This document shows positions 60,781-62,968 of a stretch of 64,000 bases of DNA, in pieces. The notes below the pieces were generated by a model, which saw nothing but the letters and a program-made list of their open reading frames with translations, was not told the origin of the DNA and did not search any database. Source of the stretch: Escherichia phage HY126. The stretch lies in sequence record PP658200.1. The stretch is one strand, 5' to 3'. The position numbers and the translations under genes were made by a program. The stretch's first letter is position 1, and the number at the start of each line of letters is the position of its first letter.

Positions 60781-61056
60781 TAAGGCAAGTGTTTGTACGA
60801 AACGCCGGGATTCGAACCCGGTTATTAAGCAGTTGACGCTACTCAATATTTTTAAAAGGCCATATCTCGACCATATCCGAACGTTCCGTCAAAAACGCTA
60901 CTCGGCTTACGGCAAAGATATTTCCTCGAATCGATAATTCTTTGCGCCGTTTCTGCTGTGATGTAAGGGGATATTAACAAATCATAAAGATTTATTAAGA
61001 CCAGTCCTTACTCAGGGAACATCAGTCCGACGACTTGCCGGTAGCGACCCGGCTTC
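60781..61056 (-). ncRNA. candidate structured stable RNA / degenerate tRNA region
   Basis: No credible ORF; canonical T-arm CCGGG-TTCGAAT-CCCGG (about 60814-60830) with partial acceptor pairing but no clean anticodon arm; separate 11-bp stem hairpin at about 60921-60962. Confidence 0.3.
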
Positions 61057-61401
61057 TTATTTTGACATATCATCAATTTGTTCTCTACGTCTACGCCATA
61101 GATTAATTACTTCATCAACACATTCAGCATTTGGTATATGACGACAATAGTATAGTGATTCGCGTTTCTGGAACCGATGTTGTAATGGAATTTCGTTTAA
61201 AAGGTCTTTACGGTCAAAGTATTCAAAACTAGTTAACCCGGAACGGTTTTTAAGAAACTTCCAATGTCCGAATTCATTTTGAAAATAGACATAATCAGCA
61301 TGCTGATACAGCGAATTAATTAACCTATCGGAAATAACTGTTTCACGTTCGTTAAAATAAAACGTTAAGTCATGAACTACCAGATAAATATTGCCTTTCA
61401 T
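61057..61401 (-). CDS. hypothetical protein (about 114 aa)
   Basis: Start refined to MKGNIYLVV with GAGGAAAAT SD. Confidence 0.5.
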   Translation of the reverse strand: MKGNIYLVVHDLTFYFNERETVISDRLINSLYQHADYVYFQNEFGHWKFLKNRSGLTSFEYFDRKDLLNEIPLQHRFQKRESLYYCRHIPNAECVDEVINLWRRRREQIDDMSK

Positions 61402-61480
61402 ATTTTCCTCACTTAAAGTTGGTGCCTCTAGAAAGATTTGAACTCTCACCATTAACCTTAGAACGATTATATGCTATCCA

Positions 61481-62146
61481 TTACACTATAGAGGCAATTA
61501 AATTATTTACAATATCTTCTTTATAAACTTCAGCATAATGAAGTTCATATATTTCCCATCCTAATGATTTTATAATATCATGGCGTTCTTTATAATAAGG
61601 GGCCAAAATCTTTTTCTTAGGATTGGAGTAATGTTGGTTTCCATTAACTTCAATAATAATCTTTTTATCTATTAAAGCAATATCCGTGCAATACGCTCGG
61701 TTTTTAACCGGTTGGTATTCTTCAATAAATGAAATTCCGTTTTCTATTAATTTAGATTTCAAAAATTCACAAGGCACAGATTTAAATTTTGTATTTTTCT
61801 TCCAAGGATGTTTATCAGGGTTTTCATTCAACCATTTTTTCCGAGCATTAGATATTTTTATTCTAGATTCCTCAGAGTGTTCTCTACCTAATGAAGCGGC
61901 TGACAATTTTTGTCTAGTCTCTTCCGAAATTACTACAGGGACACCAGTCTTTTTAGATACAACATACTGGTTTAAATTACCTGAAGCTATACGTGCTTTA
62001 TTCATTGCTGCAATGGCTGATTTAGAACTTTCTTTATACAATTCCAATTTAGGGTTGGATTTACACCATCTAGTGTGGTTAGCCATCCATCCTTTAGGTT
62101 TATTAGAAATATCAAATTCCATATTACAATGTTTACAAATGCTCAT
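61481..62146 (-). CDS. homing-endonuclease-like protein (NUMOD3 motifs + Vsr/DUF559-like nuclease domain)
   Basis: Two NUMOD3-like repeats (SEETRQKLSAA, SEESRIKISNA), N-terminal Cys/His cluster, C-terminal …IIIEVNGNQH…KERHDIIKSLGWEIYEL… like DUF559/Vsr endonucleases; start refined to MSICKH. Confidence 0.65.
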   Translation of the reverse strand: MSICKHCNMEFDISNKPKGWMANHTRWCKSNPKLELYKESSKSAIAAMNKARIASGNLNQYVVSKKTGVPVVISEETRQKLSAASLGREHSEESRIKISNARKKWLNENPDKHPWKKNTKFKSVPCEFLKSKLIENGISFIEEYQPVKNRAYCTDIALIDKKIIIEVNGNQHYSNPKKKILAPYYKERHDIIKSLGWEIYELHYAEVYKEDIVNNLIASIV

Positions 62147-62220
62147 TACCAATTATCTCCTATAAAATATAGGAGTATTTATTATTTGGATAGAGCACTT
62201 AATTTACTTCGTTTAAATTA

Positions 62221-62292
62221 CTGGCGCACTTGGACTCGAACCAAGATAAAGGAGTTAACAGCTCCCCGTAATAACCTTTATACGATGCACCA
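62221..62292 (-). tRNA. tRNA, anticodon GUU (Asn); CCA not encoded
   Basis: Folded by eye: 7-bp acceptor (one G-U), U8, A14, GG in D-loop, anticodon loop CUGUUAA, T-arm CUUGG-UUCGAGU-CCAAG. Confidence 0.55.
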
Positions 62293-62298
62293 TTTGTT

Positions 62299-62373
62299 TG
62301 GTGACCCTGGCTGGTTTCGATCCAGCTACCTATCAGTTATGAGCTGACAGCTCTCCCATTGAGCTACAGGGCC
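62299..62373 (-). tRNA. tRNA, anticodon CAU (Met or Ile2), encoded CCA
   Basis: Folded by eye: GGCCCUG acceptor, D-arm GCUC/GAGC, anticodon loop CUCAUAA, T-arm GCUGG…CCAGC, 3' ACCA. Confidence 0.75.
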
Positions 62374-62452
62374 TAAATAACTTTCTATTATGAAAGGCAC
62401 TTTAGAGCACCTTTGGTAATAGAGGGTATGAATTAATAATAACACATAATTC

Positions 62453-62968
62453 TTAAAGCAAATCAATCATTTTAACAGTCGGCAAAACAATTTCTTCTTC
62501 AATATAAGCGAATTCAACACGTTCAACTACACGCAAGAAATCATAGTCGTAGTATTCAGAAGCATAGCCAAGAATATCAATAAGGCCTTGGGATATCTCA
62601 TCGCCTTTCACAAAGAACAGGTCGAATACACGCGATTCGTCTTCTTCAGATTTATTACCAAGGTCGACTTCAATATCAAAGACCTTTTTAATGAATTCTG
62701 GATAAAGCTGGTCTGAGAACAGTCCTTCAACCAAGTATTCATAGATTAAAAGCGAGCAATCACTGAATGGTGTATTACCACAGTAACGTTCAGCTTTAGT
62801 GCTAGAATGACGACTCTTAAATTTCTTCAAGAGATATTTAAACTGTTGGAGCTCATGCTCTTCTACACCAAATAATGTTTTGGTTTTATAGTTGTCGCCG
62901 TCATTTTCCCAAGTAGTGACATCAATTACGTAACCTTTAGGAATTGTACTGCCTAAACAAATATTCAT
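62453..62968 (-). CDS. hypothetical protein (171 aa)
   Basis: Minus ORF; acidic. Confidence 0.55.
   Translation of the reverse strand: MNICLGSTIPKGYVIDVTTWENDGDNYKTKTLFGVEEHELQQFKYLLKKFKSRHSSTKAERYCGNTPFSDCSLLIYEYLVEGLFSDQLYPEFIKKVFDIEVDLGNKSEEDESRVFDLFFVKGDEISQGLIDILGYASEYYDYDFLRVVERVEFAYIEEEIVLPTVKMIDLL

Follow-up and report, generated by a model that had tools for sequence, protein, structure and literature searches.

In phage T4 the gene segB is inserted between tRNA-Arg and tRNA-Ile, as reviewed by Edgell (PMC2988022), and codes for a GIY-YIG endonuclease, SegB, that cuts tRNA genes (PMC2330249). SegB recognizes a generic T-psi-C motif with no isotype preference, is associated with tRNA genes family-wide, and according to a recent report has an adaptive role, in that it amplifies tRNA and anti-defense loci (PMC13096335). 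A common scheme of expression applies in T4 to I-TevI, I-TevII, I-TevIII, segB and mobE, whereby read-through RNA is untranslatable and late transcripts begin within a hairpin (PMC2988022). A different architecture is represented by I-Bth0305I, a phage-borne enzyme encoded in an intron of recA, with a Vsr-like PD-(D/E)xK nuclease domain and an active site formed by D196, N208, H213 and D222; the EDxHD family also includes free-standing members, for example Hef of phage U5 (PMC3239194). Of the Vsr (1vsr/1cw0) and DUF559 (3hrl) proteins, Vsr works on its own as a repair nickase, with a zinc site and Trp residues that intercalate; it has no NUMOD or zinc-finger targeting modules, is not mobile, and shows no link to tRNA genes.

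We have studied a window of 64,000 nucleotides from Escherichia phage HY126 (PP658200.1), an RB69-like (Mosigvirus) phage, in which an ORF together with its own tRNA-Arg(UCU) and a tRNA-Asn very probably constitutes the 874-bp cassette of an active or recently active Vsr-like homing endonuclease; this assessment is based on sequence comparison and structural modeling. The element is of a known kind, the free-standing Vsr-like homing endonuclease, with some additional traits: a fused and putatively resistant tRNA-Arg, a further tRNA carried along as cargo, and a preference for tRNA-Arg(UCU) that holds across the family. Hef of phage U5 can be likened to it by description only. Functionally, the system closest to the HY126 cassette is T4 SegB. 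Both genes are free-standing and occupy the slot between tRNA-Ile/Met(CAT) and tRNA-Arg; the initial annotation had placed T4 segB in this region, and the published tRNA-Arg/tRNA-Ile insertion site (PMC2988022) is indeed the same slot. Both are preceded by a late promoter and an RBS-sequestering hairpin (read from the sequence in the case of HY126), both alter which tRNA genes the recipient carries, and both belong to families that are associated with tRNA genes throughout. The two systems differ in fold, Vsr-like versus GIY-YIG, which are unrelated; in specificity, as SegB is isotype-blind whereas the HY126 family is enriched beside tRNA-Arg(UCU); and in the physical overlap of the HY126 gene with a tRNA gene.

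Organization of the endonuclease locus

The endonuclease ORF (221 aa) is on the minus strand at 61481-62146, with an ATG at 62146 and the stop codon at 61481-61483. A TTG at 62152 is an alternative start; the ATG is favored because the homologues in other phages begin with the same MSICKHC and have an SD 6-7 nt 5' of their start. Along the transcript the order according to ARAGORN is tRNA-Met, tRNA-Asn, ORF, tRNA-Arg, all on the minus strand: tRNA-Met(CAT) at 62299-62373 is the conserved right-hand homology arm; tRNA-Asn(GUU) at 62221-62292 is carried as cargo by the cassette and is missing from the empty allele of phages JS09 and HX01; the cassette-type tRNA-Arg(UCU) at 61420-61495 differs in sequence from the native tRNA-Arg of JS09. 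Rfam confirms the three tRNAs at 53.6-59.4 bits (56.3 bits for tRNA-Arg), and detects nothing besides them at the locus.

This arrangement departs from that of the initial annotation, in which the gene was beside, and directly upstream of, two tRNA genes. With the gene on the minus strand, tRNA-Asn and tRNA-Met are upstream of it, and the gene lies within the array, its 3' end overlapping by 15 nt a third tRNA gene, tRNA-Arg(UCU), that had not been seen before. The first 15 nt of this tRNA are the last four codons and the stop codon of the ORF (GCC TCT ATA GTG TAA, ..A-S-I-V-TAA). A cut by RNase P at the 5' end of tRNA-Arg would remove the stop codon, and therefore maturation of the tRNA and translation of the endonuclease are possibly mutually exclusive in any one transcript; if this is true, the overlap would amount to a built-in throttle on expression of the endonuclease.

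Replacement cassette and empty sites

Exact comparison with JS09 and HX01, both of which are without the cassette and 100% identical to the HY126 flanks, delimits a replacement cassette of 874 bp at 61424-62297 (minus strand), consisting of tRNA-Arg', the ORF, its leader, tRNA-Asn, and a spacer. With exact breakpoints, these 874 bp stand in place of 75 bp in JS09/HX01, which are a native tRNA-Arg(TCT) of quite different sequence. When 50,697 phage records were searched by megablast with the region 60900-62600, 762 records gave a match and the whole query was covered in 10; with a 701-bp JS09 probe at a coverage of at least 80%, the empty allele was recognized in 118 records, versus approximately 10 that bear the cassette. 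The check on presence or absence of the gene that accompanied the initial annotation comes out as predicted with these counts.

The cassette is 99.2-100% identical (0-6 mismatches over 874 bp) in seven other E. coli phage genomes (Mizar, ZQ3, WFL6982, F2, AV111, PTE-Eco05 and ELT1; eight records), while their flanks are 76-96% identical to those of HY126. The high-identity tract common to the other backbones extends from ~61394 to 62374; one of its ends is inside or at tRNA-Met (5' end), and the other lies past the 3' end of tRNA-Arg by a few tens of bases. JS09-type flanks and the cassette occur together in no other record of the phage collection searched, and therefore the HY126 locus looks like a recent acquisition; as judged from these alignments, it appears to be the product of a very recent event that joined a JS09/HX01 backbone with a cassette identical to that of ZQ3 and F2.

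Three features of the homing-gene class can be recognized in these data: presence/absence polymorphism with precise boundaries, an element more conserved than its flanks, and copies that are degenerate or deleted as in a life cycle (PTE-Eco05, G2285 and DCP548). The proposal of a mobile cassette, already made in the initial annotation, agrees well with a near-identical element spread over diverged backbones.

Relics, chimeras and other insertions

A frameshift interrupts the endonuclease ORF of PTE-Eco05 (L070:2082-2767), for which the CDS annotated is 2082-2567 and tblastn gives two pieces (99.6%); this is either a pseudogene or a sequencing error. In Escherichia phage G2285 (L074 ~1436-1506) the equivalent of 61084-62149 is deleted: tRNA-Asn and the endonuclease leader, with the promoter box and the 5' half of the hairpin, are retained, while the deletion has removed the ORF and tRNA-Arg together with the greater part of the RB69ORF150c homologue, and therefore there is no tRNA-Arg at this locus. 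The DCP548 homologue codes for a protein 79% identical to the HY126 endonuclease, and the tRNA 3' of it (L009 ~1003-1080) is chimeric, with a cassette-type 5' half and a native-type 3' half that meet at the boundary between variable loop and T-stem; ARAGORN makes no call here, and the acceptor stem does not pair. The cassette allele of tRNA-Asn also exists without the endonuclease, both in the relic of G2285 and in Salmonella phage SEA1 (L075 1419-1573), in which 6 nt separate a cassette-identical tRNA-Asn from the native-type tRNA-Arg(UCU) behind it, the endonuclease gene being absent; plausibly, the SEA1 arrangement is the empty site for the Asn-gene-Arg order.

Some additional variation was noticed around the same site. 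In Escherichia phage AV115, tRNA-Asn (L076 1488-1559) equals the cassette allele up to GGTTCGA in the T-arm and is divergent thereafter, which suggests a further recombination junction at the T-loop, the motif reportedly cut by SegB. Escherichia phage AV116 has in the tRNA-Met/tRNA-Arg slot, adjoining a native-type tRNA-Arg, a gene for a GIY-YIG (SegB/SegE-like) endonuclease (L071:882-1547); this protein also has 221 residues, and we considered whether it might be a diverged copy of the HY126 endonuclease, but it is GIY-YIG and unrelated (E = 2.7). With a GIY-YIG gene there as well, endonucleases of different classes share the slot, which is therefore a hot spot for them. A third type of insert, a 177-aa T5orf172/MUG113 ORF, is present at the locus 3' of the tRNA genes in AV110 (L007:1010-1543) and ESh27 (L072:811-1344).

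At the other border of the cassette, the RB69ORF150c homologue (61057-61452, minus strand) begins 11-30 nt 3' of the CCA end of tRNA-Arg; its longest call (ATG at 61452) would overlap the tRNA, and the JS09 annotation is shorter (345 nt). A G+C-rich terminator-like hairpin at 61037-61053 (plus strand) is located just below the 3' end of this homologue (61057), near one end of the G2285 deletion.

Distribution and selection

The initial annotation had entertained the idea that the gene may be specific to this lineage. According to the annotation of the records, the gene instead occurs in E. coli phages of three different genera (Mosigvirus, Tequatrovirus and Gaprivervirus), and it has relatives at 28-64% identity in Klebsiella, Enterobacter, Providencia, Acinetobacter and Rhizobium phages, a more distant one (27%) in Citrobacter phage CkP1, and others in hundreds of metagenomic clusters. 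A search of 5.8 billion proteins yielded 131 relatives; when 1.84 billion cluster representatives were searched exhaustively, 209 relatives were obtained at E ≤ 1e-30, and 1,421 when the limit was E ≤ 1e-3. Most of the records examined label the gene "hypothetical protein"; two distant homologues are labeled "HNH endonuclease", which does not match the fold. In the open-access literature, to which our survey was confined, we found nothing describing this endonuclease family or its link to tRNA-Arg.

Between lineages of the endonuclease dN/dS is 0.06-0.2, and therefore the protein is under purifying selection. Selection of this strength is what speaks for a nuclease that is kept for competition among phages or for defense (superinfection exclusion, degradation of host DNA), with gene conversion not being the main selective force; the role of SegB in amplifying tRNA and anti-defense loci (PMC13096335), and the advantage that the extra tRNA-Asn of the cassette may bring to the phage, point in the same direction. 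We consider this explanation unlikely, because occupancy is low (~8% of the Mosigvirus-type loci and ~3% of the Klebsiella group), pseudogenized and deleted copies exist, and the PADLOC defense-system models give a single weak and irrelevant match to the endonuclease; moreover, the observed pattern of allele replacement is the one predicted by homing, with which the explanation overlaps rather than being exclusive of it.

Domain structure and putative active site of the endonuclease

The protein carries at its N-terminus a C2HC zinc finger (C4, C7, H24, C28; modeled at pLDDT ~95), which a helical linker separates from two NUMOD3-like helices (residues ~72-103); these are followed by a conserved NPDKHPWK..KFKSVPCE segment (residues 108-127) and by the Vsr-like nuclease domain (residues ~124-221). 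The four peptides singled out in the initial annotation (SEETRQKLSAA, SEESRIKISNA, IIIEVNGNQH and GWEIYEL) are all present in the translation. Among the Pfam families DUF559 passes its cutoff (21.4 versus 20.6 bits), whereas NUMOD3 is narrowly under it (18.9 versus 20.4 bits) with the second repeat alone being scored. RAP, which belongs to the PD-(D/E)xK clan like DUF559, reaches 23.9 bits versus a cutoff of 24.2; GIY-YIG is not matched in Pfam, and no family is matched in NCBIfam. In PHROGs the protein matches two families whose function is not known, and more weakly some families that bear the annotation of a homing or HNH endonuclease. Across 52 members of the family, RAP is matched in 43 (at E ≤ 0.01), DUF559 in 24, MTES_1575 in 23 and NUMOD3 in 10; their N-terminal regions differ, with C2HC zinc fingers as in HY126 or, in paralogues, HTH domains.

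An AlphaFold2 model built on the 52-sequence alignment has a mean pLDDT of 89.8, and the first-ranking structure in a Foldseek comparison of this model with the PDB is 3r3p, the catalytic domain of I-Bth0305I (E = 7e-4); this result and the DUF559 match both sustain the C-terminal Vsr/DUF559 nuclease that had been proposed. A profile of the nuclease domain alone also has 3r3p as its best match among PDB sequences, at a marginal E-value (0.037), while searches of the same sequences with the whole endonuclease and with the full-length profile retrieved nothing relevant. The resemblance to I-Bth0305I, by structure as well as by profile, thus concerns a C-terminal Vsr-type PD-(D/E)xK domain that is about 20-24% identical in the two proteins (as compared via the 3r3p catalytic domain), and it extends to a modular, NUMOD-type N-terminal DNA-binding region in a phage-borne protein. 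In HY126 this region includes the C2HC zinc finger, the NUMOD3-like helices (just under the Pfam cutoff) and the NPDKHPWK..KFKSVPCE segment, in I-Bth0305I NUMOD2/HTH repeats. The HY126 gene is free-standing, unlike the intron-encoded I-Bth0305I, and the niche of its family is the tRNA cluster, while that of the I-Bth0305I type is in genes of DNA metabolism.

Seven residues of the nuclease domain (E143, D155, E166, N168, G169, H172 and Y173) are invariant in the 52-sequence alignment, as are K112, W115, K120, S123, P125, C126 and K130 just N-terminal of it. The strand motif IEVNG is identical in the endonuclease and in I-Bth0305I when the nuclease-domain profile is aligned to 3r3p, with Asn in the position of Vsr His64. 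In the HMMER alignment D155 corresponds to D196, E166-V-N168 to E206-V-N208, and H172, with an offset of one residue, to H213. The counterpart of E143 in I-Bth0305I is ambiguous, and D222 of I-Bth0305I has no clear counterpart in HY126, as HMMER places it near Y184/Y185; D190 is kept in 33 of the 52 homologues. The EDxHD motif is therefore mapped in part, with its final Asp unmatched. Judged by the fold and by most of the motif, the closest family is the EDxHD class, to which the protein probably belongs, with a putative cleavage activity.

Two other interpretations of the protein have to be weighed against these data. The Asn that replaces the canonical Lys/Asp of the (D/E)xK motif in EVNG, the imperfect late-promoter box of the HY126 lineage, and the frameshift in one copy could be taken to indicate that the protein is a relic without catalytic activity, or a regulator that binds DNA, and that the cassette moves solely through ordinary homologous recombination between tRNA genes. 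We reject the idea of an enzyme inactivated by the Asn, since N168 does not vary among the 52 homologues and the IEVNG motif is shared with I-Bth0305I, an active enzyme in which N208 forms part of the active site (PMC3239194). All other putative catalytic residues are likewise invariant, dN/dS is far under 1, and a cassette with 0-0.7% divergence inside flanks with 4-24% divergence requires active drive or a very recent transfer, all of which renders this interpretation most improbable. In the other interpretation, the protein would be a RAP-like RNA-directed nuclease or RNA-binding protein that acts on its own tRNA precursor in tRNA processing or turnover; RNA-binding RAP domains have the same fold, and score as well as DUF559. 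The RAP match does not discriminate, because its fold is common to Vsr and DUF559, and the N-terminal modules are of a DNA-binding type (zinc finger and NUMOD3, HTH in paralogues); the setting of the gene, moreover, is one of DNA mobility among phages. A role in tRNA processing also fits poorly with a gene that is polymorphic in its presence, missing from most phages with tRNA arrays, near-identical as part of a cassette on diverged backbones, found in frameshifted and deleted forms, and replaced in the same slot by unrelated GIY-YIG endonucleases; we regard it as very unlikely.

Leader and control of expression

The 5' leader of 74 nt (62147-62220, minus strand) contains at 62186-62193 (minus strand) a late-promoter-like box, AATAAATA, which has one mismatch to the T4 late consensus TATAAATA; the consensus itself is found in DCP548, in PSD2001, and in the Klebsiella, Providencia and Acinetobacter relatives. 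Directly after the box comes an inner hairpin, CUCCUAUA-UUU-UAUAGGAG, with the SD inside it, and an outer stem, AAGUGCUC/GAGCAUUU, encloses the AUG, its 3' arm being in the first codons of the ORF (~62138-62146). The RNA fold of the leader has a ΔG of −20 kcal/mol and a z-score of −3.26. The same layout of box and SD/AUG hairpin, with different stem sequences, recurs in the homologues of DCP548, PSD2001, and the Klebsiella, Providencia and Acinetobacter phages; the spacer between SD and ATG is 3 nt longer in the HY126 lineage than in those relatives, and expression in this lineage may be weaker. From the arrangement of these elements, and by analogy with T4, we infer that the HY126 leader matches the control scheme of the T4 homing endonucleases. 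A scan for sigma-70 promoters returned fewer sites than in shuffled sequence, and was uninformative; a terminator-like match on the plus strand at 62157-62175 is simply the leader hairpin read on the opposite strand.

Native tRNA-Arg(UCU) as the putative homing site

The native tRNA-Arg is the element that is lost every time. The cassette-type allele of tRNA-Arg is accompanied by the endonuclease gene in 11 of the 11 records that carry it, and is never found without the gene. The Klebsiella Jiaodavirus phages, in which a homologue (64% identical) is present in 5 of 186 matching records, show replacement of the native tRNA-Arg independently: between flanks that are 99.3-99.4% identical, 269 bp starting with a native-type tRNA-Arg(TCT) are exchanged for 873 bp. 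The new segment carries a tRNA-Leu and the gene together with a cassette-type tRNA-Arg, and the ORF and this tRNA-Arg again overlap by 15 nt.

A relationship with this tRNA can also be recognized in metagenomes. Relatives were located in 55 IMG/VR loci, reduced to 46 by de-duplication. In 43 of these 46 there are tRNAs within 3 kb of the gene, the nearest at a median distance of 42 nt, and in 20 of the 46 a tRNA-Arg(tct) directly adjoins the gene; since the 46 loci contain 22 tRNA-Arg(tct) genes in total, 20/22 are adjacent to it (Fisher odds ratio 40, p = 2e-11). In most metagenomic loci tRNA-Arg is upstream of the gene, while in HY126 it is downstream. The GenBank homologues in Providencia, Rhizobium, Acinetobacter and Citrobacter phages are likewise within tRNA arrays. 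Because of the linkage with tRNA-Arg, the chimeric tRNA-Arg of DCP548, the replacement in Klebsiella phages, and the adjacency in IMG/VR, we consider it rather likely that the homing site is the native-type tRNA-Arg(UCU) gene, and we infer that the cassette allele would be its immune version. Alternatively, the gene could adjoin tRNA-Arg because it hitch-hikes with a tRNA that is useful, and not because this tRNA is its chosen target.

If the cassette is a homing endonuclease element, the following sequence of events can be envisaged. In read-through transcripts of the tRNA cluster the hairpin would hide both SD and AUG, whereas the late promoter just 5' of the hairpin would give rise to a shorter RNA, translatable late in infection; this part of the scheme derives from the leader sequence and the T4 precedent. 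The zinc finger and the NUMOD3 modules would bind a long DNA site, and the Vsr-like domain, probably dimeric like I-Bth0305I, would cut by means of D155, E166/N168, H172 and E143. As the comparative data suggest, a co-infecting phage without the cassette would be cut within its tRNA-Arg(UCU) gene of native type, and repair would copy the cassette from the donor, with one crossover in tRNA-Met and the other within, or at, the 3' part of tRNA-Arg. In the end the native tRNA-Arg would be swapped for the resistant cassette allele; products of such events are directly observed.

A more general proposal can be put forward only tentatively, namely that we are dealing with an isotype-specific family of tRNA-gene homing elements, with the native-type tRNA-Arg(UCU) as the site and a fused resistant allele, which might drive the replacement of tRNAs, their gain (tRNA-Asn) and their destruction (DCP548, G2285) across unrelated phage families. 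Apart from this proposal, the family is probably a second endonuclease family of phage tRNA clusters after the GIY-YIG SegB, structurally unrelated to it and with a clear preference for the tRNA-Arg(UCU) isotype. Elements of this kind remodel the tRNA repertoires of phages, as seen where one tRNA-Arg allele has taken the place of another, where tRNA-Asn has been gained, and where tRNA-Arg has been lost or has become chimeric, and this bears on codon adaptation and on the escape from host defenses that target tRNAs. To our knowledge, very few Vsr-like homing enzymes have been characterized so far; targeting by a zinc finger and NUMOD3 would broaden the set of natural long-site nucleases, and the recent acquisition on a JS09/HX01 backbone offers a ready pair of donor and recipient.

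As a minor observation on the metagenomic tRNA arrays, ARAGORN calls a tmRNA inside the array of one locus (L016 2509-2839), and suppressor-type tRNAs with CTA/TCA anticodons in three others (L046 3232-3307, L059 1563-1638 and L050 3741-3825); in those phages these calls may be a sign of stop-codon recoding.
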